From an uncultured Pseudomonadota bacterium (GTDB lineage Bacteria; Pseudomonadota; Alphaproteobacteria; Rs-D84): 64,000 bases of DNA. Below the pieces are notes generated by a model. The model was given only the letters and a program-made list of their open reading frames with translations. It had not been told where the DNA came from and made no database searches. Shown in pieces: positions 6,903-63,139 of this stretch. The stretch lies in assembly GCA_902774285.1 (NCBI GenBank), contig CACYHO010000001.1, forward strand, positions 202,077-266,076. The letters are read 5' to 3'. A program made the position numbers and the translations under genes. Each line of letters begins with the position of its first letter. Position 1 is the stretch's first letter.

Positions 6903-6928
6903 AGACCGGCAAATGCCGGTGTTTTTTA
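6903..6928. terminator. bidirectional rho-independent terminator (CCGGCAAATGCCGG hairpin flanked by A-run and T-run) between convergent accC and ABC permease
   Basis: Perfect 5-bp GC stem, 4-nt loop, flanking poly-A and poly-T. Confidence 0.6.
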
Positions 6929-8886: not shown

Positions 8887-8887
8887 T

Positions 8888-13447: not shown

Positions 13448-14320
13448 TTAAAGTGTTCGTTTTGGTTTAAGTGTTTTGTTTGTTATTTTGCCTATTCCAA
13501 CAAAGGTTTTGTTCGAATAAACACGATACAAACCATCCTTTTCGCCAGTTTCGATAAATCCGCCATTCTTATAAAGAATAACATCTTTATCATCCAAATT
13601 GATTACCGGAATGTCCCCCAGTGCACAATCTGGTTGCATCAAATATTCTTCAATGCGCCCATTATTATTGACCAGATTTTCCAAAAAATCAAGTTTTACG
13701 GCATTTTTTATATCAAAGCCGTTTGTAAGGGTGCGTCGTATATATGTTGTGGTTGCTATTGCATTGCACAATTTTGCAATATCGCGGACTACGGATCGAA
13801 CATATGTTCCACGCGAACAAATCACGCGAAAATTATATTCGTTGTCCCGGCTTTTACCGGTATATTCTAATTCATAAATTGTTATTGGACGTGGTTTCAT
13901 TTCTATATCTGTCCCACCGCGTGCCAATTCATATGCGCGTTTCCCGTTTATATGTACAGCAGAAAATTGTGGCGGAATTTGTTCAGTTGTTTCTTTTATT
14001 TTTTTACAGGCATCGATAATATCATCATCGTTTGGAATAATATCGTTTGTTTGTTTGATGTTTCCGGTTATATCCAAAGAATCTGTATCAATTCCAAATT
14101 TAAGACCGAACAAATATTCTTTCTTGTTTTCGCATTCTTCTTCGATAAATGGTATCATTTTGGTTGCGTTACCAAGTGCGATTGGCAAAACACCAGTAGC
14201 CATCGGATCTAGTGTTCCAATGTGACCGAATTTTTTTTCACCAAACATTTTCGCAATATGCCAACCTGTCGTTCTACTGAAAACGCCACTTTCTTTGTCC
14301 AAGATAACAAATCCATCCAT
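13448..14320 (-). CDS. truB: tRNA pseudouridine(55) synthase TruB
   Basis: GHIGTLDPMATGVLPIALG catalytic Asp motif. 290 aa. Confidence 0.9.
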   Translation of the reverse strand: MDGFVILDKESGVFSRTTGWHIAKMFGEKKFGHIGTLDPMATGVLPIALGNATKMIPFIEEECENKKEYLFGLKFGIDTDSLDITGNIKQTNDIIPNDDDIIDACKKIKETTEQIPPQFSAVHINGKRAYELARGGTDIEMKPRPITIYELEYTGKSRDNEYNFRVICSRGTYVRSVVRDIAKLCNAIATTTYIRRTLTNGFDIKNAVKLDFLENLVNNNGRIEEYLMQPDCALGDIPVINLDDKDVILYKNGGFIETGEKDGLYRVYSNKTFVGIGKITNKTLKPKRTL

Positions 14321-40104: not shown

Positions 40105-40123
40105 AAAACAAATAATGCTAAAA

Positions 40124-40153
40124 AGTCCCCGATTTATTCGGGGATTTTTTTTG
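40124..40153 (+). terminator. rho-independent terminator after infB (TCCCCG-atttatt-CGGGGA + T-run)
   Basis: 6-bp GC stem followed by TTTTTTTTGTTTTTTT. Confidence 0.55.
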
Positions 40154-40189
40154 TTTTTTTATGCGATATTTGATATAATAAACATTATA

Positions 40190-41071
40190 ATGAGAATGCG
40201 GGCTTTTTTATTATTTTTTACATTTTGTTTTAGTGTGTCACCGATTATGGCAGACACATCTGACACTTTTAATGCAGTTTATGGACAGGATGAAGATTTG
40301 TTGCATTCTGATTTAAACCAAAGTTTAGATCAACAATTACAAATCATTGAAGAACGCGTAAAACAGATAGATCCTGAAATAGTCGAAAAATATGCAAATG
40401 ATGGCAAATATGAAAAAATTTATAACTATCAGCATTTTTTGGCGAATCGTGTTTATGAAACAAAAGCAGAACAGTTTTTGAATAGGTTGCAAGAACATGC
40501 AAAATCCAAAGGGTACAAAGTGACAAAAGCATCAGAAGGGATTGATGATACTTATATTTTGGAGTTGCCAACATATATGAAATCACCAGAATGCTATGAA
40601 AACGGAGATATACGCGATATTCGTAAGTGCGAATACCCAAAAGATTATGATTTTAGTTTGTTAAGTATAAGTGAAAGTGAAATATTTTTTATGTTAGATA
40701 ATATGGAAACCATATATTCGTATTTTGTGATACGTGATGGTTCAGGAAGCGAAATTGGTGATGAAAGTAAAGACGTAGAATCCGGAGAATTCATGTTAGA
40801 ATTGTCAGAGACAAAACTATCACACAAAGAATACTTAGACTTTGAAAACAGACACATATATTGTAATTGGGGTGCTGAAATACCCTATGCTAAAGAATCA
40901 AATAAATGTTCTAAAAACTCTATCCTGACGAAAAAATGTGCAGAAATTATGCAGTTGAGCATGGAAGCATATGATGAATGTTTGGGAGAATATATTTATT
41001 TGCCTGCCACAGATGTTAAATCAGTAATTCATAATTTTCTGTACGATTCGCAAAGGAATAGTATTAAATGA
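40190..41071 (+). CDS. hypothetical secreted protein (293 aa)
   Basis: Start chosen at MRMRAFLLFFTFCFSVSPIMA (signal peptide). Acidic, 8 Cys. No recognised motif. Confidence 0.45.
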   Translation: MRMRAFLLFFTFCFSVSPIMADTSDTFNAVYGQDEDLLHSDLNQSLDQQLQIIEERVKQIDPEIVEKYANDGKYEKIYNYQHFLANRVYETKAEQFLNRLQEHAKSKGYKVTKASEGIDDTYILELPTYMKSPECYENGDIRDIRKCEYPKDYDFSLLSISESEIFFMLDNMETIYSYFVIRDGSGSEIGDESKDVESGEFMLELSETKLSHKEYLDFENRHIYCNWGAEIPYAKESNKCSKNSILTKKCAEIMQLSMEAYDECLGEYIYLPATDVKSVIHNFLYDSQRNSIK

Positions 41072-41886
41072 AAAAAAAGATAGTGTTTTTATTATTGATT
41101 ATTGTTCCGATAATATCGACATCGGTGTCCTATGCAGCAAGTCAAAATACAACAGATGAGATACAAGAACAAGATTTAAAAAGCATGCTTGATAAAATTT
41201 GTGAAAGAGGTGGTTGTTCTGTTGAAAGTGTTAAACAAATGGACGATGAAGAATTTTTGCTTAATGTATTACAACCTACTGTAAAACTAATAAAACTTAA
41301 ACAAAAATATGAAGCGGCGAAAGAAAAAGAACAATCTCTTGCCAACCGGACTTTAACGGCGGCAACTGTTGCTGCAACTGGAATCGGTGGTATGGAATTG
41401 GCTATGGGGCTTTCTGAACAAAAGGCCGATAAAGAAGCAGATGCCGATATGGCGGCATATATGGCAACAATGCGTTGTACCTATGGTAATAAAAAGCAAG
41501 TAAATGCCGGTCCAGATGAAATAGAATTGCCCGGCGGAAACAATTCGGAATTAATGTCTTTGCGTAATGAATATTTTTCTTTGGCTGCAGACCTGAAAGA
41601 ACGCAAAGAAGCATTAGGTATGGCACCAGGAATTGAATCTGAAGAAATTTTAGATAAAGCCACAAGCGGACTTTACGATGATGAAAATATTGGTACGGAT
41701 TCTGGTGCGTATGCATCCATTTATCGTGCAGAAAATGGTAATGAAACAGATCAGGCAAAGATAGATGAAGAACGCAAGGTATCCAAGAATCGTGTAATTG
41801 GTGGCGGTGTTGCCGCCGGTGCGGGCGTGGTCGGTGGAACCGTTGGTAATGCTGTGATAAACAGAGATAGAAAAACACGTAAATAA
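41068..41886 (+). CDS. hypothetical secreted coiled-coil/glycine-zipper protein (272 aa)
   Basis: Signal peptide. LTAATVAATGIGGMELAMGL and C-terminal VIGGGVAAGAGVVGGTVGNAVI glycine-zipper segments. Same style as the 28195 family. Confidence 0.5.
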   Translation: MKKKIVFLLLIIVPIISTSVSYAASQNTTDEIQEQDLKSMLDKICERGGCSVESVKQMDDEEFLLNVLQPTVKLIKLKQKYEAAKEKEQSLANRTLTAATVAATGIGGMELAMGLSEQKADKEADADMAAYMATMRCTYGNKKQVNAGPDEIELPGGNNSELMSLRNEYFSLAADLKERKEALGMAPGIESEEILDKATSGLYDDENIGTDSGAYASIYRAENGNETDQAKIDEERKVSKNRVIGGGVAAGAGVVGGTVGNAVINRDRKTRK

Positions 41887-42420: not shown

Positions 42421-43080
42421 TTATAAACCTTTTGGTGCTGCCATTTTTACAGATGAAACTTTTTTGTTTAATGCTTTGACAACTTCGTCTGTGATATCAA
42501 GGTTCTTTACATTGTCGCCCATGCGCGCCATACGACCATCGATTACCAAAGATAAATTCTTTTTTGCGATTATACCCTGGATAACAGGATCAAGATGTTT
42601 CTTTTGAATTGTTTGAAGGGCATCTTGGTATGAAGCTTCGATTGATTGTGCGCTTTCAGACAGATGACGTTGGAATTCATTTACACGACGTTGATAATCA
42701 ATAACACGACGTTGTAATGCTTCTTGGGATAAAATGTCTTGAGATTTTTCAATATCTGCTTTTTCTTTTTCAATCGCTTTTTGTTCTTTTTCAAGTTTTG
42801 TTTTTAATTTGTTTTCAAAATTTGCACGTTGTTTGTGTAAATCTTCCAAAACTTTTGCATCCATTTGGATTTTGTCCATGCTGATTACAGCGATACGCAA
42901 ATCAGCAGCATTGGCAGCGTCTGTTGATACTTCTGCAATTGCAGATGCTGTATCGTGACTTTTTACCATGTGTGATACGGCAAATATACCAATTAATGCA
43001 ACAACGATAACCGCGGCGGCGATAATGCCTTGTTTAGAATATTTTTGTAAGATTGGATTTAAGTTTTTTATTTTTTTCAT
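42421..43080 (-). CDS. OmpH/Skp-family periplasmic chaperone
   Basis: N-terminal signal/anchor, then a long Lys/Glu/Gln-rich helical region (KLKTKLEKEQKAIEKEKADIEKSQ). 219 aa. Typical of the OmpH family. Confidence 0.65.
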   Translation of the reverse strand: MKKIKNLNPILQKYSKQGIIAAAVIVVALIGIFAVSHMVKSHDTASAIAEVSTDAANAADLRIAVISMDKIQMDAKVLEDLHKQRANFENKLKTKLEKEQKAIEKEKADIEKSQDILSQEALQRRVIDYQRRVNEFQRHLSESAQSIEASYQDALQTIQKKHLDPVIQGIIAKKNLSLVIDGRMARMGDNVKNLDITDEVVKALNKKVSSVKMAAPKGL

Positions 43081-43150: not shown

Positions 43151-43831
43151 TTATCGTGCAGGTGTTAACCGAATTTCAACGCGACGATTGGTAAGGCGAC
43201 CAATGTCATCTTGGGCTGCGATTGGGCGTGCGGGACCACGTCCGACAATAAACATACGCGATGTCGAAACATTATGTTGTGAAAAATATACACCAACGCG
43301 TTCAGCCATGTCTAAAGATAATGCATAAGACGCGTTTTTATCAGACATTGCATCTGTGTATCCTGCGATTTCCATAAATGTAGCATTATATTTATTCAAT
43401 ATTTTTGAAATGGTTTTAAGTGTATCGGCACCATCCGCAGATATATCTGCAACAGATTGATTCATAATGCTATCGCGAACCAATATCACAACAACATCTG
43501 TGCCGGCGCGCTGAACAGAAATGCCAGGCTTGCGTAATGCATCATACAATTCGTATTCCAAGCCCGCCATATAATTTACCAACACGGCATTATCTATTGC
43601 ATTTTTATCACCATATTGCATTTTTTCAGATAGTTCACCAGTTTGTGTTATAACTTTGCCACCGTGTCCCATATATACAGGCATCTTTGCAATGCGGGCT
43701 GTTTCTGTCATATCCATAAAGCTGGCCCCGTAAAGATGTTGTTGCCATGTGTTTCGTTCAGGACTGTGGTATTGCAGGCATCCTGTCAATGTAAAACACA
43801 AACCAATAAAAATTATTCTTTTAAAATTCAT
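43151..43831 (-). CDS. OmpA-like domain lipoprotein
   Basis: Lipobox LTGC. C-terminal OmpA/MotB-like motif IAGYTDAMSDKNASYALSLDMAERV...RRVEI. 226 aa. Confidence 0.7.
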   Translation of the reverse strand: MNFKRIIFIGLCFTLTGCLQYHSPERNTWQQHLYGASFMDMTETARIAKMPVYMGHGGKVITQTGELSEKMQYGDKNAIDNAVLVNYMAGLEYELYDALRKPGISVQRAGTDVVVILVRDSIMNQSVADISADGADTLKTISKILNKYNATFMEIAGYTDAMSDKNASYALSLDMAERVGVYFSQHNVSTSRMFIVGRGPARPIAAQDDIGRLTNRRVEIRLTPAR

Positions 43832-43834: not shown

Positions 43835-44290
43835 TTATTTTGCAAAAAATGATATTGTATTGTCGCCTGTTTTTAAACAATAAGATGCATCGCTTGAATC
43901 ATATCCGTTAACACTTATATGTGTTGTCCAATCAAATTTCTTGGTTGTAAAATAAGCACATTCATCAAATGTTAAATCAACCAAATTGATTGAAAATTCT
44001 GTGCCATTAAAATTACTTGTCACAGACCAAGCGTTACCACCCGCAGGTGCTTTGTCGTTCGTTAATGCACCGGCTTCAATCAAGAAGCCAACTGATACAG
44101 GTGTGTATCCAGAATATTCTAAAAGTGTTTTTGTTTTTGTTGCGATGTTTTCTAATTCTGTTGACGCAATTAAACGTTTTTGTTTCGCGTTTGTAGAATT
44201 ATATATTGCATAAGTCCCGGCAACCATAATTGCACTAATAGCGAGTACCCCGATAATTTCAATTAATGAACGCCCTGATTGTTCCCTCAT
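43835..44290 (-). CDS. type IV pilin-like protein (class III signal peptide, C-terminal disulfide loop)
   Basis: Leader MREQSG, then RSLIEIIGVLAISAIMVAGTYAIY (Glu at +5). A C-terminal Cys pair (FDECAYF...DASYC) resembles the type IVa pilin D-region. 151 aa. Confidence 0.65.
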   Translation of the reverse strand: MREQSGRSLIEIIGVLAISAIMVAGTYAIYNSTNAKQKRLIASTELENIATKTKTLLEYSGYTPVSVGFLIEAGALTNDKAPAGGNAWSVTSNFNGTEFSINLVDLTFDECAYFTTKKFDWTTHISVNGYDSSDASYCLKTGDNTISFFAK

Positions 44291-46345: not shown

Positions 46346-47725
46346 ATGCTTAAAGTTGTAGGAGGGAGGCTTTTGCAAAAACAGTCTGGTAATTTTTTAC
46401 TGCAAGCGTTGCTAGCACTGACTTTAGTCTTTGCTTTTATGCCGTTTTTTGCGCGTCGTATTTCTTCGCGCGATATGGCCGCCCAAATGTATGCTGCAAC
46501 AGAACAAATAGAAACAGCGCAATCTGCTGCGCGAATTTATTTGCGTGAAGAAAAAGATAATTTGCCTTATAAAAAGCAAGAAATAAGCAAAGAAAATTTT
46601 GTTAATATATTGGAAAACTATGGTTTGCCACTTGGTTTTGTCCCACAAACACATTTCAATCAGAACATATCTCTGGTGATAAACAAAGATGAAAATAGTT
46701 TTTATGGTTTTATAAATGTAACCGGTGGAAAATTATCGAAAGTGCAAATGGCCGAATTAGCACGCAGAATAGGTTTTTATGCAAAAGTTAACGGAAATAA
46801 TATCGAAGTCGATATACCACTTGATGCAATGTACAGCGATATTGTGTCAAAAAAAGAAACTGGGGAAAATGTTGGTTTTTTATCTGAATTAGATATGAAC
46901 GATAAAAGTGTTGATAAGATAGGCGTTTTATTTGCGCGCAATGGTGAATTTGAAAGCGCGCAATTTAATACATTGTCGCTTTATGGTATTGAAGAAAGTA
47001 GAAAAGATAAAAATAAAATTTCTGATTTATATGCGAATAAAACAGTTTTTCAAAGTGCTGATGGTGGCGCTGCTTTATCCATTTCCCGTGGTGAAATAAC
47101 GACAAGTTCAGCATCGTTGCGTACAGTGTCAAGATTTGGAACAACTGGTGGTTTTGAATCGAATGTTGCAGCGGTATATGATTTTTCTATGTCGGAAGGT
47201 CGTACGGGGTTTAGTGGTCCATCACAATGGTTGGTTCGTGGTTCTGTGCTGGCCGATAATTTTAATTTTAATGTTGATAGATTAGATATAGGTTCGTATC
47301 TTGATGCTTCGCGTGGACAAGATGTTTATATTGATCCAGAAAGTTTGACGTACGCATCAAAAGTAGGTGTTGATGCAAAAAATATATATGCAGCAAATAT
47401 TTCATTGCGCGATCAAACTTCATACGGTTTATTGGATGGTCGTTCTGGGCCTTTGTTAATAGATATAAGACCTGCTGGGACTTCTCTTTTGCCAGATGCA
47501 TATGTTGATGGGATAAATAATGATTCTTTTGAAATTATTGCCGATCCAAAAGACACAACAGGTAAAAAAGTTTCGTGCAGAGACATAATAAGTCAAATTG
47601 ATGTTGTGTATAACAGTAAATCTTTGGCACAGAATATAATTTGTCAGTATGTGTTTTGGCAAAGATTAGAAGCAAGAATAGATATAAAACAATGTTTAAA
47701 AAGTGGGCGAAGTGATTGTATGTAA
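46346..47725 (+). CDS. large pseudopilin/TadE-like protein A (prepilin-type N-terminus; 459 aa)
   Basis: Probable true start is TTG at 46373, 7 nt after GGAGGGAGG, giving leader MQKQSG|NFLLQALLALTLVFAFMPFF. ExAQSAxxxY...NYGLP motif shared with protein C. 4 C-terminal Cys. Confidence 0.5.
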   Translation: MLKVVGGRLLQKQSGNFLLQALLALTLVFAFMPFFARRISSRDMAAQMYAATEQIETAQSAARIYLREEKDNLPYKKQEISKENFVNILENYGLPLGFVPQTHFNQNISLVINKDENSFYGFINVTGGKLSKVQMAELARRIGFYAKVNGNNIEVDIPLDAMYSDIVSKKETGENVGFLSELDMNDKSVDKIGVLFARNGEFESAQFNTLSLYGIEESRKDKNKISDLYANKTVFQSADGGAALSISRGEITTSSASLRTVSRFGTTGGFESNVAAVYDFSMSEGRTGFSGPSQWLVRGSVLADNFNFNVDRLDIGSYLDASRGQDVYIDPESLTYASKVGVDAKNIYAANISLRDQTSYGLLDGRSGPLLIDIRPAGTSLLPDAYVDGINNDSFEIIADPKDTTGKKVSCRDIISQIDVVYNSKSLAQNIICQYVFWQRLEARIDIKQCLKSGRSDCM

Positions 47726-48908
47726 AAAGTATTTTGACAGATTAAATGCAGATATTGCACGCGGTGCAACTTTGACCGAAGTGATTTTGGCAGTTGCTGT
47801 TATAATTGCAGTGTCCCCTTTTATGTATAATCAAATTATTGACATGTCCAATGAATCACAAGATATTGCACGTGCTAATGAGATTGTTAATATACGTGAT
47901 TCTGCTATAAATTATATTCGTATCAATCACGAAAAATGGGATGATACAGTGGAAATAAAATTATCCGATGAAGAATTAAAAAAAATATCTTCTATGGCAC
48001 ACAGTGGATATATTGATAAATATAAAGTTAAAGGGGCTTCTATAAGTGATATATATTTGGCGTTTAATATGGAAAATTCGGATTACAGGGCGGCAAATAT
48101 AGCAAAACAAATCGGCGAAGATGCTGCGGTCGTTCGTGAAGATGGAATTGCTTATTCGCAAAGTTGGGCTGTTTCTGCGCCTGAAGATTTTCATGTTGGC
48201 GATTTGATTTTTAGAATATCTTATGATTTCGAAGGTGCAGATAAATCAAGATTTTTACATCGTGGAACAATGGGTGAAGACAAATTAAATCAAATGCAAA
48301 GAAATTTGCATATGAATAATTTTAATGTGTTTAATACGGCAAAAATTGACGGACTTTCTGCAAAAATTACAGATGTTGATGCAGTGTTTCTTGAATCAGA
48401 TGTTGTGGATGCAAATACTGTTTATTTTACATCTGGGGCAAATATGAATTCGGATAGTGTGACCTTTTCTTCTTTACGTGTGACCGGCGATACAAGTGGT
48501 TTTAGATTAATCAAAGCAGATGTTTTAAATGACGATAAATATACAACAAGTGGAAAGTTGATTGTTGATCGTGCAACAATTGGCAATTCTGTTAATGTTG
48601 CTGGGAATTTAATTTTAAAATCTTCAAGTGGAAGAAGTGTTTCTGGTTTTAGTGGCATATCAATGAATAAACTTTTAACGCCATATTTATCTGCTACAGA
48701 TTTGGTGTTTTTTGAAAATTTTGGTATAACGGTTTCTGGTGAATTATTATTGGCTGGCAAGGCACCTTTGAAAATTGGGAACTGGGCGTTTCCTTCAACA
48801 ACCCCACCATCTTTTTCAAAGTTAACATTAACACGTGCATCTGTTCCACCAACACCGGATGCTGATGAATTTAATAAAATCATAGAAGCAAATTGGAATA
48901 CAAAATAA
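47703..48908 (+). CDS. large pseudopilin/TadE-like protein B (401 aa)
   Basis: ...DIARG|ATLTEVILAVAVIIAVSPF (Glu at +5, Pro at +14/15, as in the TadE-like N-domain). Ser/Thr/Gly-rich beta-repeats shared with C. Overlaps A by 23 nt. Confidence 0.5.
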   Translation: MGEVIVCKKYFDRLNADIARGATLTEVILAVAVIIAVSPFMYNQIIDMSNESQDIARANEIVNIRDSAINYIRINHEKWDDTVEIKLSDEELKKISSMAHSGYIDKYKVKGASISDIYLAFNMENSDYRAANIAKQIGEDAAVVREDGIAYSQSWAVSAPEDFHVGDLIFRISYDFEGADKSRFLHRGTMGEDKLNQMQRNLHMNNFNVFNTAKIDGLSAKITDVDAVFLESDVVDANTVYFTSGANMNSDSVTFSSLRVTGDTSGFRLIKADVLNDDKYTTSGKLIVDRATIGNSVNVAGNLILKSSSGRSVSGFSGISMNKLLTPYLSATDLVFFENFGITVSGELLLAGKAPLKIGNWAFPSTTPPSFSKLTLTRASVPPTPDADEFNKIIEANWNTK

Positions 48909-50221
48909 TGGTAAAGAAACGAAACTTTTTTCATAAAAATACACAACATGGTGGGATGTTGGTGGAATTGATGATGACTATTGCGCTGGCCGCAATAATT
49001 ATTCCGTTTGTATTCCGTTATCAACAAACGGCGGTGTCGCGTGCAAGAAATGTTGCCATAACAAAACAAATGGAAAATGTTCAAAGTGCGCTTGAAAGAT
49101 ATATTGTTGAAAACAAAACAGAATTAATGCGTCCAAAGGGTAAAAATATAACGCGTATAAAAATAACAGATTTAATAAATTATGGTTTGCCAGAATACAT
49201 TGCAGAAACTTATGGCGATGATTATCAATTAAGAATTTTGAAGTCTTCTGACAATAACAATAAATCAACATTGCAAGGAATAGTGCTTTTATCTAATCGT
49301 GAAATATCGCCAATGCGTACACGTGAAATTGTAAATCTTGGTGGTGGTAAATTCGGATTTGTCGAAGGTAATATAACATATGGTGGTTTTGGCGCGTTTC
49401 GTGGTTCTGCCACCGATTTTGGAATAGCAAATACCAAAGGCTTGATTGGAACAACAAATGTAAAACGCGGGAATACGGAATACTTATGGCGTTTGCCGTC
49501 TGAAAATGAAGATGATGCAACGATGCAATCTGCGTTAAATCTGGATGGACACGATATGAAAGGTGTTCGTTTTGTTGATGCAAATAAAGCCCAATTTGAA
49601 GAAAAGTTAAAAGTTGGAAAATTGGATGTTTCAACTTTGGTTTTTGCCAACCGTTCAACGATAGATTCTGTATATTCAACGAACATAGCGGTCGTAAACG
49701 GTGCATTAACAGCAGATTCAAGAAATATGACAGTTAATGGAACTTTGTCTTTGGCAGATTCAGCAAAATTTTCATCTTTTTCAACGAACGATTTATATGT
49801 TAATACATTAACTTTAAGTGGTTTTAGTGTTTCGACAACAGATGGAAAATCTTCCGCATTAAAAATTATTGGTGATATGGATTTAATAATGGGCCGAGTC
49901 AGTGCGACATATGTATCTGTTGGTTATACTGGTTCTGTGACACCGCAATTAAATATTACAGACAGAATACAAGATTCAAAAGATTCTTCGTTTTATTGGG
50001 ATATTAAAAACAGCAAAGCGCGTTTTGTTGATATTAATTCGCCAGAACTTTCGCGTATGGCATCAATCATAATGGCACAAGAATCTGTGTTTGGTACAAT
50101 GGCGACGACTGTATTTGGTGGTGTTGCAGCAAACGCAAATGCAACTGTTGCAGATTATATAAACGCGATAAACAATATGCAGACACAAATACGCGCAAAA
50201 TATGAAATGTTGAATTTATAA
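48893..50221 (+). CDS. large pseudopilin/TadE-like protein C (442 aa)
   Basis: ...NTQHGG|MLVELMMTIALAAIIIPFVF, then ENVQSALERYIVENK...LINYGLPEYI. Long Ser/Thr/Asn/Gly beta-repeat region. Overlaps B by 16 nt. Confidence 0.5.
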   Translation: MEYKIMVKKRNFFHKNTQHGGMLVELMMTIALAAIIIPFVFRYQQTAVSRARNVAITKQMENVQSALERYIVENKTELMRPKGKNITRIKITDLINYGLPEYIAETYGDDYQLRILKSSDNNNKSTLQGIVLLSNREISPMRTREIVNLGGGKFGFVEGNITYGGFGAFRGSATDFGIANTKGLIGTTNVKRGNTEYLWRLPSENEDDATMQSALNLDGHDMKGVRFVDANKAQFEEKLKVGKLDVSTLVFANRSTIDSVYSTNIAVVNGALTADSRNMTVNGTLSLADSAKFSSFSTNDLYVNTLTLSGFSVSTTDGKSSALKIIGDMDLIMGRVSATYVSVGYTGSVTPQLNITDRIQDSKDSSFYWDIKNSKARFVDINSPELSRMASIIMAQESVFGTMATTVFGGVAANANATVADYINAINNMQTQIRAKYEMLNL

Positions 50222-50258: not shown

Positions 50259-50765
50259 ATGAAAATAGTATGTGATTTTTGTAAAACAGAATATGTTTTG
50301 GATCATGTGCCAACCAAGCCTGTTAAGTGTGCTGTATGTGGTCATGTTTGGACACCGCGTGTTCCATTTCGTCACAAAACATTAATAAAGTTTATTGCGG
50401 CACTTTGCGCTTTTATCGCGGCATGTATATTTTCATTGGTTGTGATTGTGAATATGAATACAAAGAAAAATCATCCGCTTGTTACAAAAATAGATGAAAA
50501 AAATATTCACACAGTATTAGACGAAAACGGCAACAATCGTATATTTGTTTCTGGTAATATTACAAATACCACGAACGATATATATGGTTTGCCAAATATC
50601 ATAATTATTTCTTATGATGCTGTTGGTAATGTTTTGTCGCGTCAAACTTTTATGCCACCTGCAACATTACTGGAATCAAAAACAACTGTTACATTTAACC
50701 ATATGTTGTCAGTAGACCCAACAAATGTTAAAAGACTTTCTGTTGAACTAAAGGAATCAAAATGA
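50259..50765 (+). CDS. zinc-ribbon (MJ0042-type) + TM + DUF3426-like protein
   Basis: MKIVCDFCKTEY...KCAVCGHVW double CxxC, one TM helix, then a C-terminal beta-rich domain. This is the common alphaproteobacterial layout. Confidence 0.55.
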   Translation: MKIVCDFCKTEYVLDHVPTKPVKCAVCGHVWTPRVPFRHKTLIKFIAALCAFIAACIFSLVVIVNMNTKKNHPLVTKIDEKNIHTVLDENGNNRIFVSGNITNTTNDIYGLPNIIIISYDAVGNVLSRQTFMPPATLLESKTTVTFNHMLSVDPTNVKRLSVELKESK

Positions 50766-52206: not shown

Positions 52207-52291
52207 AAATAATCGCAATTACATATCATTTTTCGCTTTCTTTATTTTTGCGTATATGATAAAATAAATACAAAGTAAATGGAGAAAGGGG

Positions 52292-55200
52292 ATGAAAAAC
52301 ATCATCAAAGCACTTAGTTTATTGTCAATTTTTGCCGTGATTCCTGGGGCAATGGCCGCCACTTCGCGTGTAAGTATGATATCGTCACGCACGTCGCCAC
52401 GTTTGCCGTCATTTGCGGGATATATTACGGCGGTTACAAAGGGGATAACAACCACAACGACATCTTCGACGTCTTTGTGGGGTGATGTTGATTGTATCAA
52501 TAATTACACGGATTGTATTACCGCAGAAGATGCGTGTGGTGCGGATTTCGAAGAATGCACAACAAATGTTTTGTTTCATGCCCAAATGCCAAAGTGTTTG
52601 AACGTTTTGACACAATGCAGTGCAACCGGGATTAATTCGCTTTTTGGAACATCGGCGGTAACGGCTTTGTCTAACGTTGATTCTTGGAAAGATGATGCGC
52701 ATAAAGAAGTTGATCGCTATACATACCCATTGGACGGCAGTATTTTGGGACAAAGAATTATCGGTGGTGCAATTGCAAACAGATTGACAACAGAACAATG
52801 TGTCCGTCGTTATACAAACTGTTTGAATCGTGATGATGTTTGTGGTGCTGATTTTGAATTGTGTACATCACAACGTGAATTCAAAAAACAGGCTGTTTTG
52901 TGTGATTCTACATTGGCGCGTTGTGACAATGCTGGCAAAAAAGAATTGTTTGGTTCTGTTGAAAATGCGGCCGCGTTAAAACCATCTGGTGATGATGCAA
53001 GATTGAAATCTATGATTGAAGACGGTCAACAATTGGCGGCAATGAATGCGGTTAAAACATGTCAACGTGTTACCGATAATTGCTTGGTTTCTGCATGTTT
53101 GAATAATCCATGGCGCTGTGTCGAAGGAACCAGTATGCGTAAAATCAGTGCTGCTGATTTCATAGGCAGTGCAACATCTGATGCAAATACAAAAACATCT
53201 ACTATTGGTTTTCAATACAAGAAAGACGATAAAGGTGAATTTGTATTAGATGCTGATAAAAATAAAATACAAGAATTGGTATCTGATGCAGATTTATATG
53301 CATTGACTGGTTCGGATATTCGCAAAAATTTAAAAGCACAATGTTTGGAAACAATCGGTGCGAATAAATATTGCCATATGACATATCGTGAAAAATCCCC
53401 AAATAATAAAGATTTGATGGATATCGATTTACAGGAAGATGTGTTCTCTTTGGCATATGCGGCGCGCAAAGAAATGGTTAACACAAAAATCCAAGAAGAA
53501 TTGAAAAAATTCGATACCAAGGCAAAAGAAGCCTGTGTTGAAACAATTGCATCATGTGCAATGCGTTCTTGCGGTGGCGGTATTGGTTCCGTATGTTATA
53601 AAAGTGCTAAAAGCAGTAGTTCAAAAATAGGTGTAGTAAAATTAAAATCTGATGATTCAGGAATAAATATAAATGGAAAACCGTATAATGAAATTAAATC
53701 TGGATGTGCTGCGATTGTAAATACGGATCAAAATTGTATTTATGCGGCAACAGCATTGAATGATACTGGTTATAATTATTCCTATATAAATGACAAGGCA
53801 TTTGATGCATTGTTTCCAACTTTAACAAAAGGCGGGGATCCGATTGGTGTTGTTGCATATTTGAATTCTCTGTTGGCAACATCTTATAACGATGCAGCAA
53901 TTGAAAATATGAAAAAACAATGTGCAAATACAGCACTTTCTTGTGTGATTGCTATGTGTGGTACAGATTACGAAAATTGTTATCGTAACCGTACAGACGT
54001 TAGATTGGCTGGTGCAGGTTCTTACAATACAGACAGCAGTGAATTCAACAAAAGTATGAATAAGGTTGGTGGTGTCTTAGATTATAACATTGTTACAGGT
54101 TTGTGTTTGAATACAGTTAAAAACGCGTCTTCTTGTGCAGAACATTTGAAATTGGCTGCTGCGGACTGGCGTGATAAAGCAATGTCAGATAGCACAAGCT
54201 GGGCTTCAACAGATGAAGACGGTAAAGTAACAAAATATGGATCTGTGCGTGCAGGATGGTTGGATGCGAATAAAACACAAGCAACTTCTGATAATACAAA
54301 ACTGGTTGGTTGTACAGGAAGTGCAGAACAAGAAAGAAGAAATCAACAATGCGATACTTATACTGTCGCAGAATGTGATTGGATAGATCCAGAAACAGGG
54401 TGTTTGTATGATCAGGAAAAACGTGTAGACATTGGGGAATATGCTTTGTCACAAGCTGGGGAAACATTGTTCCAAGAATTGTTGGCTGACGTTGAACGTG
54501 AAGTTCAGGCAAAATACAATGCTAAACTTACCAAAGAACAAGGTATCTGTTTGGCACAAAACAATGGTGGTATTATGGGAGCAACCGAAAATGGTTCTAC
54601 ATTTATGTGGGTAAAGATGGCTAATAACAAAAAAGTACCAAACACATATAATACCAAGGGGCTTAAAACAACTGATTTCAAAGCATCTAATGATTTGTAT
54701 GGTTCATTCTGTCGTGCACGTATTACATTGACATCAGATGATAAATATATCCAAGATTTATTGGATAATGACAAAGAAAATCTTTCTACTGCATATTTTG
54801 CAGTTGGTGATGCGTTCACATGTGGTTCTTGGATAAGCGATAAAAAACTTGAAGAAATCACAAAGAAAGTTGGTGAAAAAGCACGTAAAGATGCCGGTGA
54901 AGGTTCTACAACAGAAAAAATCGCATATGCATGGGGAACTGTTGCACCTGCATTGGCTGGTTTGGGTGTTGGTTTGGGACTTGGTGAATCTGGCTTGTTG
55001 GGTAAATGGTTGAATAATGCAAGCATTGCCAATGGTGTAACAGGTGACACAGCATATAATAAGAAAACGTGTATAGATTATGCAAAGTATGCAAAGGAAG
55101 AAGCTTCAAAAGTGACAGATGAAGACGATGAAAAGCATATAGCCTTTGCGAAAGTTGCAAAGACATACATTGAGAGTGCAGCTGGCTTGTGCAACAATGT

Positions 55201-55588
55201 TGTCCCTTCTAATAGTGAATACAGAGCTTTATGTAAAATGGATGGTCTTGAAGCGATTGATAAAAAGAACGCCATCCCTCAAGCTGACTTGATAGAAAGT
55301 TTTGCTGATAGAATCACAAAAGCTTGCGAATCTGCAAATGATAGCTTTGTTGTTGGTAAAAATGGTAATATAGCGGCACGCGCTACAATCCCTGTTGTAA
55401 CAACAATAGCTGGTGGTGCTTTGGGTGTCGGTATTACTGCTTCTGTATTAAAGGCTAAGTATGAAGCTGCTGAAAATGAAGCAATTGCAAAATGGATGGA
55501 AGAAATTGGCGATCATATCCAATGCTTCCTGGGCGCCCAAGAACTGGGTTCTTATGGTGACGTGGTAAGCTTCACTATAGATGAATAA
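52292..55588 (+). CDS. giant secreted Cys-rich repeat protein (1098 aa) with C-terminal glycine-zipper segments
   Basis: Signal peptide MKNIIKALSLLSIFAVIPGAMA. Duplicated 6-Cys module C-x3-YT[DN]C-x5-CGADFExCT-x10-C-x6-C...LFG, plus degenerate copies. The module is spelled out in the 52292-55588 finding. GLGVGLGLGESGLLG and IAGGALGVGITASV near the C-terminus. Confidence 0.55.
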   Translation: MKNIIKALSLLSIFAVIPGAMAATSRVSMISSRTSPRLPSFAGYITAVTKGITTTTTSSTSLWGDVDCINNYTDCITAEDACGADFEECTTNVLFHAQMPKCLNVLTQCSATGINSLFGTSAVTALSNVDSWKDDAHKEVDRYTYPLDGSILGQRIIGGAIANRLTTEQCVRRYTNCLNRDDVCGADFELCTSQREFKKQAVLCDSTLARCDNAGKKELFGSVENAAALKPSGDDARLKSMIEDGQQLAAMNAVKTCQRVTDNCLVSACLNNPWRCVEGTSMRKISAADFIGSATSDANTKTSTIGFQYKKDDKGEFVLDADKNKIQELVSDADLYALTGSDIRKNLKAQCLETIGANKYCHMTYREKSPNNKDLMDIDLQEDVFSLAYAARKEMVNTKIQEELKKFDTKAKEACVETIASCAMRSCGGGIGSVCYKSAKSSSSKIGVVKLKSDDSGININGKPYNEIKSGCAAIVNTDQNCIYAATALNDTGYNYSYINDKAFDALFPTLTKGGDPIGVVAYLNSLLATSYNDAAIENMKKQCANTALSCVIAMCGTDYENCYRNRTDVRLAGAGSYNTDSSEFNKSMNKVGGVLDYNIVTGLCLNTVKNASSCAEHLKLAAADWRDKAMSDSTSWASTDEDGKVTKYGSVRAGWLDANKTQATSDNTKLVGCTGSAEQERRNQQCDTYTVAECDWIDPETGCLYDQEKRVDIGEYALSQAGETLFQELLADVEREVQAKYNAKLTKEQGICLAQNNGGIMGATENGSTFMWVKMANNKKVPNTYNTKGLKTTDFKASNDLYGSFCRARITLTSDDKYIQDLLDNDKENLSTAYFAVGDAFTCGSWISDKKLEEITKKVGEKARKDAGEGSTTEKIAYAWGTVAPALAGLGVGLGLGESGLLGKWLNNASIANGVTGDTAYNKKTCIDYAKYAKEEASKVTDEDDEKHIAFAKVAKTYIESAAGLCNNVVPSNSEYRALCKMDGLEAIDKKNAIPQADLIESFADRITKACESANDSFVVGKNGNIAARATIPVVTTIAGGALGVGITASVLKAKYEAAENEAIAKWMEEIGDHIQCFLGAQELGSYGDVVSFTIDE

Positions 55589-55606: not shown

Positions 55607-55636
55607 TAAACCGCCCATTTGGGCGGTTTTAAAATT
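55607..55636 (+). terminator. rho-independent terminator (AACCGCCCATTTGGGCGGTT + T-run)
   Basis: Perfect 8-bp stem after the giant ORF. Confidence 0.6.
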
Positions 55637-55715: not shown

Positions 55716-56771
55716 ATGAAAAATTTTTTGTGTAAGATTTTTGGACCACGCGGAATTAAAATTACCGCGGGGGAATTGGCAAAAAAATTCGGTTTGGAAT
55801 TACATGGTGATGCGAATGTAGTTGTTGGTGGCGTTGCACCAATCGCAGATGCTAAACCAGGCCAATTGGCGTTTTATTCCACAGAAAGAAATTCAAATGC
55901 TTTTAAAATTTTACCTATCGAAGTTTTACAAAACACGCGTGCATCTGTGATTCTTTTACAGAAAGAACAAATTAAAGATGCACCAAAAGGCGCAACACTT
56001 TTAATTACAGAATCACCACGTGGAAATATTGTCAAAATTTTGGGTGAAATTTATCGTGAAAAACCACGTTTTGGTGTATCTTATTTTGCCACTGTTGAAA
56101 AAGGTGTGTTCTTTCGTAAAAAACGCACTTGCTATATCGGTCAATATGCAACTGTGGAACGTGGTTCCGTATTAGAAGAAGGGGTAAAAATTTATCCTGG
56201 TGCTTTCATTGGTCGCAATGTTGTCTTGGGTGCAAATACTGTTGTTTACAGTGGTGCACATATTGAAAATGCCACCATTGGTGCAGACTGTGTTATAAAC
56301 GCAAATGCTGTTATTGGTAAAGATGGTTTTGGATACACACGTCAAGATGGTCATAATGTTTTTATTCCGCATACTGGACGCGTTGTATTGGGTAATCGTG
56401 TTTCTGTGGGATCAAATACTTGCATTGATCGTGGTGCAATGACAGACACTGTTGTTGGGGATGGAACTAAAATCGATAATTTGTGCCAAATTGCACATGG
56501 TGTTGTTATTGGCAAAGAATGTTTCTTGGCTTCTGGTGTTGGTATTGCAGGTGGAACAGTTGTTGGAGATCGCGCATTGCTTGGTGGACATGTTGGTGTA
56601 TCTAACGGTTTACATATTGGTGATGATGCAGAAATCGGTGCAAACAGTGGTGTGTTCCGTAATATTCCTGCCGGTGAAAAATGGTTGGGAAATCCTGCGG
56701 GGCCTGGTATTGAATTCTTCCGTCATTATGCGTGGGTTAAATCACAAATGGCAAAGGATAAAAAGAATTAA
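55716..56771 (+). CDS. lpxD: UDP-3-O-(3-hydroxyacyl)glucosamine N-acyltransferase
   Basis: Left-handed beta-helix hexapeptide repeats (GANTVVYSGAHIENATIGADCVINANAVIG...) and conserved His region. 351 aa. Confidence 0.88.
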   Translation: MKNFLCKIFGPRGIKITAGELAKKFGLELHGDANVVVGGVAPIADAKPGQLAFYSTERNSNAFKILPIEVLQNTRASVILLQKEQIKDAPKGATLLITESPRGNIVKILGEIYREKPRFGVSYFATVEKGVFFRKKRTCYIGQYATVERGSVLEEGVKIYPGAFIGRNVVLGANTVVYSGAHIENATIGADCVINANAVIGKDGFGYTRQDGHNVFIPHTGRVVLGNRVSVGSNTCIDRGAMTDTVVGDGTKIDNLCQIAHGVVIGKECFLASGVGIAGGTVVGDRALLGGHVGVSNGLHIGDDAEIGANSGVFRNIPAGEKWLGNPAGPGIEFFRHYAWVKSQMAKDKKN

Positions 56772-56803
56772 AAAAAAACGCCCGTTTGGGCGTTTTTTTT
56801 ATT
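56770..56803. terminator. bidirectional terminator (ACGCCCGTTTGGGCGT) between convergent lpxD and the secreted Cys-rich ORF
   Basis: Hairpin flanked by A8 and T8 runs. Confidence 0.6.
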
Positions 56804-57599
56804 TTGGACATGCAGCTGTCATACCAATTACTTTTTGGACATCGGTATTTATTGGAACATTTATTTCGCGTTGCAGACCGTCAGTATATTTATATGTGAA
56901 TTTGGATAATTGAAATTTTGGAACGCTTTCGTACATATCAAGAAATGGTTGTAATAACGAATCAAACCATTGATAGTTTTTACATAAACATGCGTTGCGG
57001 ACATCTGCGACCATTTTGCCATCAACGGTTTTTGAATATTTTGATATGATGTCATTGTCGTCCATAACCAAGCAACGTTTAGTTATGGCGAAATAATTCG
57101 CATCATCTTTTAAAAATTCATATATTTCTTTATCGTCCGCACCATTTTGACGCATTTTATATAATATCCCAGCTGTGCAACATGCTTCACTGGCGTTCAT
57201 TAACATATGATATCTTTGAACCAGTGGTTTCATATATTCATCATTTGCAGAAACAGTTGGGTTTGATAATGCGATTTGTTCCATGTCCCATGCAACTTCA
57301 GAATTAATATGTGGCGCGCGTGGTGCAACAACTATCTTATAAGATGGTTTTTTATACCATACTGCACATTCTTCTGGTGTTTCAAAAGGACAATTATAAT
57401 CGTAATAACAAGTTTTTTCCGTTTCTGTGGCTGATACTGACGGGAATATCCAATTAACTTCGTATTGTGCCGGAACTAATATATCTGTTGATTCTTCGAA
57501 TACCAATTCACAATCTTCGCCAATACATTCAGATGCGCAAACATAATTTACATTTAACGCAAAGGCTAACATCGCCAAAAAAGATATTTTGTTTCTCAT
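56799..57599 (-). CDS. hypothetical secreted Cys-rich protein (266 aa)
   Basis: Start chosen at MRNKISFLAMLAFALNVNYVCA (signal peptide). 14 Cys including CIGEDC, CYYDYNC and EACC. Confidence 0.45.
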   Translation of the reverse strand: MRNKISFLAMLAFALNVNYVCASECIGEDCELVFEESTDILVPAQYEVNWIFPSVSATETEKTCYYDYNCPFETPEECAVWYKKPSYKIVVAPRAPHINSEVAWDMEQIALSNPTVSANDEYMKPLVQRYHMLMNASEACCTAGILYKMRQNGADDKEIYEFLKDDANYFAITKRCLVMDDNDIISKYSKTVDGKMVADVRNACLCKNYQWFDSLLQPFLDMYESVPKFQLSKFTYKYTDGLQREINVPINTDVQKVIGMTAACPK

Positions 57600-57836
57600 A
57601 ATTCTTAATTTTATCATAAAAAAGGTGTGTTTTAAACAAATATTTTTCAAAAAACACATAAATGTTTATATTTTTTTGTTCGATTCGGGGGCGAATCGGG
57701 ACGAACGAATCGTTTTTTTGATGTTTTTTGCAACTATATAAAAAATATTTTGAAAAAAATATATGGGATAAAATGCCGAATTTCTGCGATTTTTTAATTT
57801 TTTTACTTTTTTTGAAAATTATTTTTGAAAAATCGC

Positions 57837-57865: not shown

Positions 57866-58189
57866 AACCGGGCTTTCAAGTTGGCCCTCTGCAAATCTAC
57901 AAAAAGTCAACCCCTGAAATTTCGCGATTAGATCGCAACATTGTTAATAAAAGCAGCTCATCAAAATGATTTTTGATGTATTCAAAAATCTGTTCAAGAA
58001 GAGATATGCAGACAGTTGAATTTGGAATATCCAAACTTTGACTAAGTCAAATGTGCATATCCTAGACAGGTAGTAGGTTAAAATATAACCTCGTTAAAAA
58101 CTTGTCTTGCGAATATATATATGTAAAGACGAACTGATTAAAGTCAGCTTTGTTAAATGCACAGGACTTAAATTACAAGTTTTTTTTAG

Positions 58190-59693
<1,504 letters not shown>

Positions 59694-59804
59694 TAGAGAA
59701 AACCACTTACACGAAAGTGGTCACCCAAATACGACTGTCTGAATATCTCTTTTTGATGATTCTGGTATCAGCAGAACTAATGGCTTGAAATCAGAATATG
59801 TTAT

Positions 59805-59881
59805 GGGTCAGTAGTTCAGTTGGTTAGAATGTCGCTCTGATACAGCGAAGGTCGAAGATTCGAGTTCTTCCTGACCCACCA
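59805..59881 (+). tRNA. tRNA-Ile (anticodon GAT) in 16S-23S spacer
   Basis: GGGTCAGTAGTTCAGTTGGTTAGAATGTCGCTCTGATACAGCGAAGGTCGAAGATTCGAGTTCTTCCTGACCCACCA. Anticodon loop CTGATAC. Confidence 0.9.
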
Positions 59882-60185
59882 GTTTTTAAGATGAGGTTAG
59901 AATCAAAAATGATTGTTCATTTTTGATTCCAAATATTCCACGGAATATCCAATGGAATCTGCTTTTATAGCAAAATATTGTTAATCGGTTTTTATGTCGC
60001 AAGTTAAATCGAAAGATTTGATTTGTTGAACATCGTAATCTCAAAATATTCTTTCTGAAGAGTAATCACGAAAGTGATAATTCAATTCAAAGAAAGCAAG
60101 AATCAACTTAAATGCTTAAAAAACTCATTTCAAGTTTCTTTTAAGATTATCTTGAAGACATTCTCTTCAAGCATAAGATAAAAAG

Positions 60186-62920
<2,735 letters not shown>

Positions 62921-63024
62921 TTTTATCTTATCGTTTGATTATTTCAAACGATATGCTTGAAGAGAGTGTTAAAGATTCTTGACAATAGAAATTTTTAGAT
63001 TATTATATGTTCGCTAGATTTAAT

Positions 63025-63139
63025 TCTGGTGATTATAGAGCGGACGAAACCCTCTGTTCCATTCCGAACCAGACAGGGAAAAGCCGTATCGCCGATGGTA
63101 CTTTGACTTAAGTCACGGAAGAGTAGGTCGTCGCCAGAA
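63025..63139 (+). rRNA. rrf: 5S ribosomal RNA
   Basis: TCTGGTGATTATAGAGCGG...CCGAACCAGACAGGGAAAAGCCGTATCGCCGATGGTACT...GAGTAGGTCGTCGCCAGAAT. 5S-like helices with an extended flanking processing stem. Confidence 0.8.

Follow-up and report, generated by a model that had tools for sequence, protein, structure and literature searches.

We analysed a 64,000-nucleotide stretch of DNA (the window; assembly GCA_902774285.1, contig CACYHO010000001.1, positions 202,077-266,076 of the forward strand), and all coordinates below are relative to it. An open reading frame (ORF) at 52292-55588 on the + strand encodes a Cys-rich protein of 1098 residues, which we call BIG, the name also used in our descriptions of gene order. 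A preliminary description of the stretch had reported this ORF, and it was found exactly so, with an ATG start and a Shine-Dalgarno sequence upstream. BIG is probably a single-copy cell-envelope protein of an orphan family restricted to reduced-genome gut Alphaproteobacteria (Rs-D84, 'Candidatus Enterousia' and relatives), and the carriers of this family are probably partner-dependent.

The BIG gene and its Cys modules

The BIG gene lies between rluD (PseudoU_synth_2), upstream, and lpxD, downstream, where the preliminary description had placed it. The terminator of its own that had been proposed corresponds to a terminator-like hairpin at 55608-55629 with a 9-bp GC-rich stem (-15.6 kcal/mol, z -3.4), whose stability was equalled by 0 of 200 shuffles. 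The consensus terminator scan made no call for this hairpin because the T-run is short. A promoter-like site was found upstream of lpxD. The gene order dnaX (- strand), then g46346, pil401, pil442, Zn-ribbon, sec161, rluD, BIG and lpxD is kept in 65-70 of 80 related loci, and a second copy of BIG was seen in none of the 80 genomes. It is a single-copy syntenic chromosomal core gene, outside any island. Genes for the envelope are abundant around it (lpxD, skp, ompA-like, lptD, lptF/G, surA-like). The features of the gene and its product are as follows.

52281-52291 (+): Shine-Dalgarno region GGAGAAAGGGG, immediately 5' of the ATG, read from the sequence
52292-55588 (+): complete reading frame of BIG, 1098 residues plus stop, ATG start
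52292-52357 (+): predicted Sec-type signal peptide, residues 1-22 (MKNIIKALSLLSIFAVIPGAMA/A), without a lipobox Cys, hydropathy peak 2.0
52358-52423 (+): conserved N-terminal linear motif, residues 23-44 (ATSRVS...SPRLPSFAGY), from conservation
52439-52477 (+): Thr/Ser-rich linker, residues 50-62 (KGITTTTTSSTSL), from sequence composition
52487-52651 (+): 6-Cys module A1, residues 66-120 (C68, C75, C82, C89, C102, C109), from Cys spacing and alignment
52793-52957 (+): 6-Cys module A2, residues 168-222 (C170, C177, C184, C191, C204, C211), from Cys spacing and alignment
53000-53389 (+): 4+2-Cys module B1, residues 237-366 (C257, C264, C269, C276 ... C351, C361), from Cys spacing
53423-53758 (+): 4+2-Cys module B2, residues 378-489 (C415, C422, C427, C435 ... 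C472, C482), from Cys spacing
53849-54181 (+): 4+2-Cys module B3, residues 520-630 (C544, C551, C556, C563 ... C605, C615), from Cys spacing
54182-54430 (+): variable Cys-containing region, residues 631-713 (C674, C687, C695, C704), column conservation 0.29-0.64
54431-54901 (+): conserved alpha/beta domain, residues 714-870 (C753, C807, C844), from conservation and the structural model
54920-55003 (+): Gly-rich hydrophobic segment H1, residues 877-904 (IAYAWGTVAPALAGLGVGLGLGESGLLG), from hydropathy
55004-55378 (+): hypervariable, length-variable loop domain, residues 905-1029 (C927, C967, C981, C1012), modelled as a helical bundle
55379-55453 (+): Gly-rich hydrophobic segment H2, residues 1030-1054 (ATIPVVTTIAGGALGVGITASVLKA), from hydropathy
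55454-55585 (+): C-terminal tail, residues 1055-1098 (W1068..G1073..I.C1078-Y.G....G.YGD), conserved family-wide
55608-55636 (+): terminator-like hairpin AAACCGCCC-AUUU-GGGCGGUUU, then U/A-rich sequence, from folding energy

The clean signal peptide noted earlier is present. It ends in ...IPGAMA/ATS with no Cys at +1, the first Cys of the protein being residue 68, and A22, A23 and T24 of the cleavage region are at least 90% conserved. The linear motif that follows has the family pattern T-[SA]-R-[VP]-S ... R-[LM]-P-[ST]-[IL], is kept even in members of about 25% identity, and has conservation of at least 90% at R26, R37, L38, P39, S40, I41, A42 and G43. This motif is predicted to be disordered, with a predicted local distance difference test score (pLDDT) below 40, and is connected to the rest of the protein, a putative rod, by the Thr/Ser-rich linker. 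The linker contains the Thr-rich stretch TTTTTSSTS pointed out earlier, and 140 of 185 long family sequences have a Ser/Thr run of at least four within the first 120 residues. None of the other proteins of the window carries the N-terminal motif, and the idea of a general sorting signal was dropped for this reason.

The spacing C-x6-C-x6-C-x6-C-x12-C-x6-C is present twice, in identical form, at residues 68-109 and 170-211. The two modules align without gaps over 53 residues with a Smith-Waterman score of 127, against a shuffle mean of 25.7 (standard deviation 5.0, z=20), and their family profiles match in hhalign with a probability of 99.1% and an E-value of 1.8e-18. By this alignment evidence, A1 and A2 are true duplicates. 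The preliminary description had spoken of two adjacent copies of about 55 residues; their homology holds, but they are not adjacent, as their starts are 102 residues apart. Self-BLASTP on the protein left the 6-Cys repeat undetected, but Smith-Waterman alignment with shuffling and hhalign both confirm it as an internal two-copy repeat. All six Cys of A1 are at least 98% conserved, and the module appears in the model as helix-loop-helix (pLDDT about 90). It is missing from distant members.

The later modules had been taken for degenerate copies of the first. They are better described, on their Cys spacing, as a second module type (B), in which C-x6-C-x4-C-x6/7-C is followed by C-x9-C 37-75 residues further on. 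This type occurs three times, with Cys blocks at residues 257-276/351-361, 415-435/472-482 and 544-563/605-615. At their Cys clusters the B modules can be aligned in register, and the CGADFELC of module A has an echo in the CGTDYENC of B3. In hhalign, homology was not significant for B against B or for B against A (P 0.004-0.4), with P=0.006 across 23 columns for A2 against B3. In 20,000 shuffles of the mature ectodomain, the 13 observed C-x6-C pairs were never approached (maximum 7), and two 6-Cys patterns or three 4-Cys patterns were reached by none. The Cys of B1 are invariant around a variable, poorly conserved insert at residues ~295-345, and B2 holds the invariant MRSCGGGxGS motif, which also served as our search pattern for relatives. 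The alpha/beta domain has a long helix (714-755), beta strands, the motif NDLYGSFCRARIT and three invariant Cys, which make the Cys total of the body odd. The whole protein has 42 Cys, not the ~70 first estimated, while the two hydrophobic Gly-rich stretches noted near the C-terminus are indeed there, at residues 877-904 and 1030-1054.

Family, fold and rate of evolution

We searched 5.8 billion protein clusters with a word index and obtained 972 matches. The best 120 of these are full-length, 47-65% identical and unnamed or called 'hypothetical protein', all from metagenome-assembled genomes (MAGs) of Alphaproteobacteria. A profile of 121 sequences, run against all 1.84 billion representatives, recovered only 257 clusters (50% identity) at E<=1e-3; these were orthologs or fragments throughout, with no bridge to another family. 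Among the species representatives of GTDB, the MRSCGGGxGS pattern found relatives in 171 stretches from 171 species, all of them uncultured gut or rumen Alphaproteobacteria. The record titles name 'Candidatus Enterousia' or else uncultured Alphaproteobacteria or Rickettsiales, with the guts of humans, ruminants, horses, rabbits and chickens as sources, and one carrier genome is a circular MAG of 958,618 bp. The family is therefore closed and lineage-specific, as had been suspected. The ORF is intact, at 1022-1275 residues, in 76 of the 80 related species-level loci, and the remaining four reach contig ends, so that no disrupted copy was seen.

Copy number varies at the level of the modules. 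Two A and three B modules are present in 133 of 146 full-length members, whereas 8-9 distant members have a single A module, which corresponds to module 2, together with three or four B modules. As only A2 is kept in these distant members, module 1 is a lineage-specific duplication and A2 is probably the ancestral copy.

Three kinds of record in the family call for separate comment. Matches to the C-terminal part only, which could suggest stand-alone 'anchor-only' proteins, were rejected as contig-end fragments or a chimera. One 301-residue protein (P0263) joins N-terminal two thirds that are polynucleotide phosphorylase-like (KH, S1 region) to the anchor and tail of the BIG family, and is probably an assembly or gene-calling chimera rather than a real fusion. 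A contig titled 'Bacteroides fragilis isolate ... cleanbin' (L031, CAVGNU010000002.1, 102,416 bp) contains the entire alphaproteobacterial locus, with an ortholog 97.6% identical to the one in Alphaproteobacteria bacterium UBA6376 (L029). The contig is probably mis-binned or mislabelled.

The whole protein matched zero families in Pfam and NCBIfam at E<=0.1 and zero in PHROGs at E<=0.01. Searches of sub-segments against Pfam at E<=10 gave chance-level matches only, such as ApoO/MIC26 with H2 and the tail (E 0.13), which we attribute to the Gly-rich composition. The protein and its family profile found nothing below E 0.19 in the PDB by sequence, and Foldseek gave best E-values of 0.18 against the PDB and 0.09 against BFVD. 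No known annotated domain was found by these searches, in agreement with the earlier remark that no fold could be recognised.

An AlphaFold2 (AF2) model built from the 121-sequence alignment has a mean pLDDT of 72.6 and a predicted template modelling score (pTM) of 0.41. The model is mostly alpha-helical, with block means of 79-94 across residues 61-280 and mostly above 80 in the remaining repeat region, residues ~780-870 and the tail, save several low-confidence stretches. The loop is modelled at residues 921-1010 (pLDDT 81-96) as a helical bundle of the same kind as those of the body, and the tail as a helix and a beta-hairpin; the first 60 residues are below 40. In this model, the overall shape appears as an elongated chain of helical hairpins and bundles.

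Several Cys-rich or helical proteins invite comparison with this model. Helicobacter Hcp proteins are secreted bacterial alpha-helical repeat proteins with disulfide-cross-linked helix pairs and are comparable to BIG in this respect, but BIG has no Sel1-like repeat (Sel1/SLR) or tetratricopeptide repeat (TPR)-type Pfam match at E<=0.1, a different Cys spacing, a far larger size and a C-terminal hydrophobic anchor region. CHCH or twin Cx9C hairpins, found in small proteins of the mitochondrial intermembrane space, follow a common principle with BIG, in that same-face Cys of consecutive helices staple a hairpin. In BIG this would be done by C-x6-C on successive helices of the A modules and by the C-x9-C pair that every B module has. 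Pfam and family profile searches found no sequence relationship, and we see no more than an analogy here. The helix-bundle chains (4-5 helices) of talin, vinculin and alpha-catenin rods and of FAT domains are cytoplasmic, eukaryotic and free of disulfides; their identity to BIG is 4-12%, which points to a generic fold type and not to homology. The Plasmodium 6-Cys (s48/45) domain is a beta-sandwich and has only the six Cys per module in common with BIG, whose modules lack a Pfam match and are helix-loop-helix in the model (pLDDT about 90). BIG also differs from autotransporters and beta-barrel-anchored proteins, as it has no autotransporter or outer-membrane protein match in Pfam and its last 25 residues are predicted to form no more than a two-strand hairpin, and from TraN-type Cys-rich conjugation proteins, as it has no TraN match in Pfam and is a chromosomal syntenic core gene.

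BIG evolves faster than its neighbours. Against the closest genome (L001), identity is 84-95% for the neighbouring genes, with nonsynonymous rates (dN) of 0.03-0.11, and 69% for BIG, whose dN of 0.24 is 2-8 times that of the neighbours; the synonymous rates (dS) are similar at about 0.8. We calculated dN/dS by region in 30-codon windows for 17 independent ortholog pairs, with the following values.

Cys scaffold: 0.03-0.12
Thr/Ser linker: 0.27
Residues 301-330: 0.30
Loop between the Gly-rich segments, residues 901-1020: 0.42-0.53, the maximum of the protein

By these ratios the body is under strong purifying selection (0.03-0.12), and relaxed or diversifying pressure acts on particular parts of BIG. 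In 120 homologs, 36 Cys of the body are ~98-100% conserved. Positive selection, for which a test had been proposed, was dropped, as dN/dS did not exceed 1 in any 30-codon window across the 17 pairs. Residues 631-713 reach 0.63-0.95 against the closest ortholog and 0.13-0.15 when averaged across the 17 pairs. The loop also varies in length from 85 to 310 residues in the family. Its highest dN/dS together with this length range makes it the likely exposed part, and suggests that, of the surface protein considered earlier, only this ~125-residue loop is possibly exposed, with the Cys-rich body possibly periplasmic.

Cys parity and the Gly-rich segments

We split 137 full-length members at both Gly-rich segments into body, loop and tail, and counted the Cys of each part. 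Every one of the 137 parsed members has a single tail Cys, which in 133 of them is combined with an odd number in the body. The loop count is even (2, 4, 6, 8 or 10) in 136 of 137. On a neighbour-joining tree, the number of loop Cys changed at least 31 times and its parity at most once; the number in the body changed at least 21 times and its parity at most 4 times, some of these parity changes stemming from mis-parsed sequences. Changes in number with stable parity show that Cys were gained and lost in pairs, separately in two units. The odd body count plus one tail Cys suggests that the tail Cys, C1078, is disulfide-bonded to the body. Such a bond would place tail and body in one oxidising compartment and the Gly-rich segments antiparallel to each other. 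The even parity of the loop suggests that it is disulfide-bonded as well, which would be unexpected for a cytoplasmic loop.

The Gly-rich segments are only weakly hydrophobic. The summed Hessa-type hydrophobicity (approximate scale values, summed without position weighting) has medians of +5.1 for H1 and +2.7 for H2 over the 137 members, every value being above 1.0, and is +4.4 and +2.2 in BIG itself. On the same scale, the true transmembrane helices of LptF/G and MacB from the window score -3.6 to +1.2, and the outer-membrane zipper helices of SlyB, whose sequence was confirmed against PDB 7OJF/7OJG, score +4.4 and +8.4. As their scores lie above those of true transmembrane helices, H1 and H2 are, on this scale, not hydrophobic enough to serve as anchors in the inner membrane. 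Of the topology proposed below, only export, the disulfide logic and weak hydrophobicity have the support of the analysis.

These results bear first on the idea that BIG is a conventional inner-membrane protein, in which the Cys-rich 850 residues are periplasmic, H1 is a stop-transfer segment, the loop is cytoplasmic, H2 crosses back and the tail is periplasmic. This arrangement has the simplest biogenesis, has tail and body on the same side to match the odd-plus-one parity, and is helped by two uncharged segments of ~22 residues, with a Kyte-Doolittle mean for H2 (1.81) above the usual cut-off of 1.6. We nevertheless think it unlikely. The stable even parity of the loop Cys is not what reduced cytoplasmic Cys would give, and their spacing is not zinc-knuckle-like. 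H1 and H2 score well away from the real inner-membrane helices of the window. Positive charge favours the side of the body and tail (3.87 + 3.26) over that of the loop (1.82 + 3.08), with no enrichment of Lys and Arg next to the loop, and the loop is the fastest-evolving and most length-variable part of the protein.

BIG might instead be an entirely periplasmic structural protein, whose rod would serve as an envelope spacer or tether, with the loop also in the periplasm and the Gly-rich segments either monotopic, inserted in a single leaflet of the inner or outer membrane, or driving oligomerisation. Every result on Cys parity fits a single oxidising compartment, the model shows no helices in the segments, envelope genes abound in the neighbourhood, and the conserved N-terminal peptide on its flexible Thr-rich tether could dock to an envelope component. 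However, the top variability of the loop in sequence and length is left unexplained, and no similarity to known periplasm-spanning proteins was seen. We regard this explanation as improbable, more so than that of an inner-membrane protein.

We tentatively favour a fully exported rod whose tail is locked to the body by a disulfide and whose split glycine-zipper hairpin, probably in the outer membrane, displays a hypervariable bundle. The actual disulfides, the membrane, the orientation and the biological role are what we infer here, as follows. The Sec pathway would export the entire chain, and the signal peptide would be cleaved after AMA. In the oxidising periplasm, the ~38 Cys of body and tail would form ~19 disulfides (about 20 in the whole protein) and staple the helical hairpins and bundles into a rigid rod, made of one or two 6-Cys modules, three 4+2-Cys modules and the alpha/beta domain. 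The 44-residue tail would then fold back and bond to the body, so that both Gly-rich segments meet as an antiparallel pair. This pair may form a split glycine-zipper hairpin, most likely in the outer membrane, as in SlyB-type proteins with two transmembrane (2TM) segments. The disulfide-bonded bundle of 85-310 residues would be carried by the end of the hairpin, so that it and the conserved rod lie on different faces of the membrane; in the most likely orientation, the bundle is exposed on the cell surface and the rod is periplasmic. In that position the bundle could be what determines contact or antigenicity towards a partner cell, the host or phages.

The nearest known system is that of the 2TM glycine-zipper lipoproteins SlyB, Pcp, YfgH and OsmB (PDB 7OJF/7OJG), with which the Rickettsia 17-kDa antigen family is also counted. 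Like these proteins, BIG has two Gly/Ala-rich, weakly hydrophobic segments, is predicted to be exported and belongs to a Gram-negative envelope. The hydrophobicity of SlyB and BIG is in the same range, and the geometry implies an antiparallel pair of segments in both. SlyB, YfgH, OsmB and YiaD have been described as transmembrane proteins of the outer membrane (bioRxiv 10.64898/2025.12.22.696046). BIG differs in having its segments 85-310 residues apart, with a disulfide-bonded domain between them instead of a short turn, and in carrying an 850-residue Cys-rich rod instead of a small beta-sandwich. With no lipobox Cys, no profile match (neither segment matches a Pfam Gly-zipper family at E<=10, and the local alignment score to SlyB is 36-37) and a non-contiguous zipper, BIG lies outside the SlyB family.

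Some of these differences weigh against the outer-membrane hairpin itself. BIG has no sequence similarity to SlyB or to Pfam Gly-zipper families and lacks the lipobox, and in SlyB both helices are contiguous. We know of no described folded domain of 85-310 residues at the tip of a SlyB-like hairpin, nor of a route by which such a domain is moved across the outer membrane. The AF2 model gives H1 and H2 as low-confidence coil (pLDDT <40), not as helices. The parity pattern is also expected if all parts share one oxidising compartment and the segments only dip into a membrane, and the hydrophobicity sums carry the reservation given with them. Residues ~295-345 and 631-713 of the body are variable as well, so exposure may not be confined to the loop. 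The sequence features suggest a new combination, in which two types of module with invariant Cys, a tail-to-body lock and a disulfide-bonded hypervariable domain between glycine-zipper segments occur together; nothing comparable was found by sequence or by fold and, to our knowledge, no precedent for this combination has been described. In function, BIG may well prove to belong to a familiar class, that of envelope or contact proteins.

Neighbouring genes and the role of BIG

Three ORFs upstream of BIG have prepilin-like N-termini and, judged by these, look like an uncharacterised pseudopilin-like set. They and the other genes that drew our attention in the window are as follows.

46346-47725 (+): g46346, 459 residues, N-terminus G/NFLLQALLAL
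47703-48908 (+): pil401, 401 residues, N-terminus G/ATLTEVILAV
48893-50221 (+): pil442, 442 residues, N-terminus G/GMLVELMMTI
50259-50765 (+): 168 residues, N-terminal MJ0042-type zinc ribbon, transmembrane segment and C-terminal FxLYD domain
43835-44290 (-): 151 residues, weak N_methyl prepilin motif (PF07963, E 0.0025)
43151-43831 (-) and 42421-43080 (-): OmpA-family and Skp/OmpH genes
55716-56771 (+): lpxD
56799-57659 (-): secreted Cys-rich orphan, 286 residues, 14 Cys
28607-30121 (+): orphan ORF, 504 residues, 19 Cys, no Pfam match
40040-41886 (+): two overlapping orphan ORFs of 343 and 272 residues, no Pfam match
13448-14320 (-): truB
6926-11376 (-): MacAB-TolC-type efflux set
58189-63139: rRNA operon (16S, tRNA, 23S, 5S)

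The pilin-like trio has no Pfam, NCBIfam or PDB match and is conserved in about 65-69 of the 80 related loci and around one distant member (L082). BIG could be a component or cargo of a pilus or pseudopilus-like apparatus built by these proteins. It might be the adhesin at the tip, a scaffold in the periplasm or a type-II-like secretion substrate, which in the last case would fold and be oxidised in the periplasm before export. The conserved order from g46346 through pil401, pil442, Zn-ribbon, sec161 and rluD to BIG speaks for such a link, as do the prepilin-like N-termini of all three proteins, a small N_methyl pilin nearby and the locus of L082 (50% GC), which is reordered to dnaX, then BIG, DUF559, g46346, pil401 and pil442. 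PilY1/PilC and type II substrates offer a model, being large, Sec-exported and encoded beside minor-pilin-like genes, and type II substrates fold and are oxidised in the periplasm. BIG resembles PilY1/PilC in its size and its predicted Sec export, and lies beside three pilin-like genes in ~65-70 of 80 loci and, reordered, in L082. However, it has no PilY1/PilC Pfam domain or similarity and is helical rather than a beta-propeller; towards its C-terminus it has helices, the two Gly-rich segments and a short hairpin. The pilin linkage is missing in the distant members L081, L083, L085 and L086, which have no pilin-like gene in the examined 6-10 kb flanks (the L083 and L085 contigs end just after BIG, so that their downstream side is unseen), and a universal functional link to the trio is weakened by its absence around these four. 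In addition, rluD stands between the pilin-like genes and BIG, the terminator-like hairpin follows BIG and the promoter-like site precedes lpxD. No ATPase, platform or secretin of a pilus or type II secretion system (T2SS) was found in the 64-kb window. A role with the pilin-like trio, including that of a type-II-like substrate, seems to us unlikely, about as much so as an inner-membrane topology.

The 168-residue zinc-ribbon protein sits between the trio and rluD in nearly all loci. It matches NF038353 (E 1.3e-5, above the curated cut-off) and TIGR02098 (E 5e-4, just below the cut-off), and its architecture resembles that of ZitP, an alphaproteobacterial polarity and pilus factor. The 151-residue gene with the prepilin motif adjoins the OmpA-family and Skp/OmpH genes and is divergent from the trio across dnaX; its pairing with dnaX is kept in L082. 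The second secreted Cys-rich orphan, of 286 residues, is convergent with lpxD and has a strong bidirectional terminator (56771-56800) in common with it. This protein is a neighbour in 47 of 80 loci, has no Pfam or NCBIfam match and lacks the C-x6-C module pattern.

Downstream of BIG, lpxD has no fabZ-lpxA after it and no bamA-skp before it, where the common proteobacterial arrangement has both; skp is 9 kb upstream, on the other strand. As bamA-skp is often found upstream of lpxD, at the site that BIG occupies, a BamA substitute was considered and dropped, since no POTRA or BamA signature was found. The two overlapping orphan ORFs at 40040-41886 directly follow nusA-infB, where rbfA-truB would usually be expected, and truB is elsewhere. 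The efflux set is complete (OEP, HlyD-family adaptor, ABC ATPase, MacB/FtsX permease) and is retained despite a very small genome.

The lifestyle of the carriers suggests a further explanation. The order Rs-D84 has genomes below 1 Mb that have lost most biosynthesis, respiration and standard transporters, and its members have been proposed to live as obligate symbionts or parasites and to interact with other cells through unknown membrane proteins (PMC12306168). BIG could be a fully surface-exposed or released adhesin or membrane-attacking protein. Its rod would project from the cell, and its Gly/Ala-rich segments would insert into partner or host membranes, as fusion peptides and pore formers do, for contact or metabolite extraction. 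The segments resemble viral fusion peptides in composition and are too weakly hydrophobic for inner-membrane retention. The predicted partner dependence of a host lineage without standard transporters (PMC12306168) and the faster evolution of BIG than of its neighbours also fit. On the other hand, no secretion system or immunity gene is nearby, viral and PDB fold libraries yield nothing, the low dN/dS of the body would be unusual for an exposed adhesin, and the gene is a single-copy syntenic core gene that is not in an island. We judge such an attack on other cells, and contact or metabolite extraction as its purpose, to be rather unlikely, on a par with the pilus link. A toxin or bacteriocin was dropped, because BIG is a single-copy syntenic core gene without an adjacent immunity-like gene.

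To return to the exported rod with a split hairpin, its boldest form is a possible but doubtful one, in which an alpha-helical glycine-zipper hairpin acts as an outer-membrane 'display stand': the stapled periplasmic rod would push the bundle through the outer membrane to the surface, where it would be the main determinant of attachment to a partner or host. If true, this would be an undescribed way to anchor and expose a domain in the Gram-negative envelope, and, should the hairpin lie in the outer membrane, the recently recognised alpha-helical glycine-zipper class of that membrane would gain a new architecture for anchoring and display. If BIG is a plain periplasmic scaffold, it would still represent a well-defined new domain family, with two module types of invariant Cys, fit for database curation.

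Rs-D84 bacteria occur widely in the guts of humans, ruminants, horses and chickens and are thought to live off other cells (PMC12306168). The BIG gene takes up ~0.3% of such a genome, is intact in every lineage examined, evolves several-fold faster than its neighbours and has no relative whose function or fold is known. The parity of its Cys yields a concrete, testable topology, with a disulfide-bonded domain between glycine-zipper segments and a tail-to-body lock. Among candidates for an envelope or contact protein that defines this lineage, BIG is one of the most obvious.

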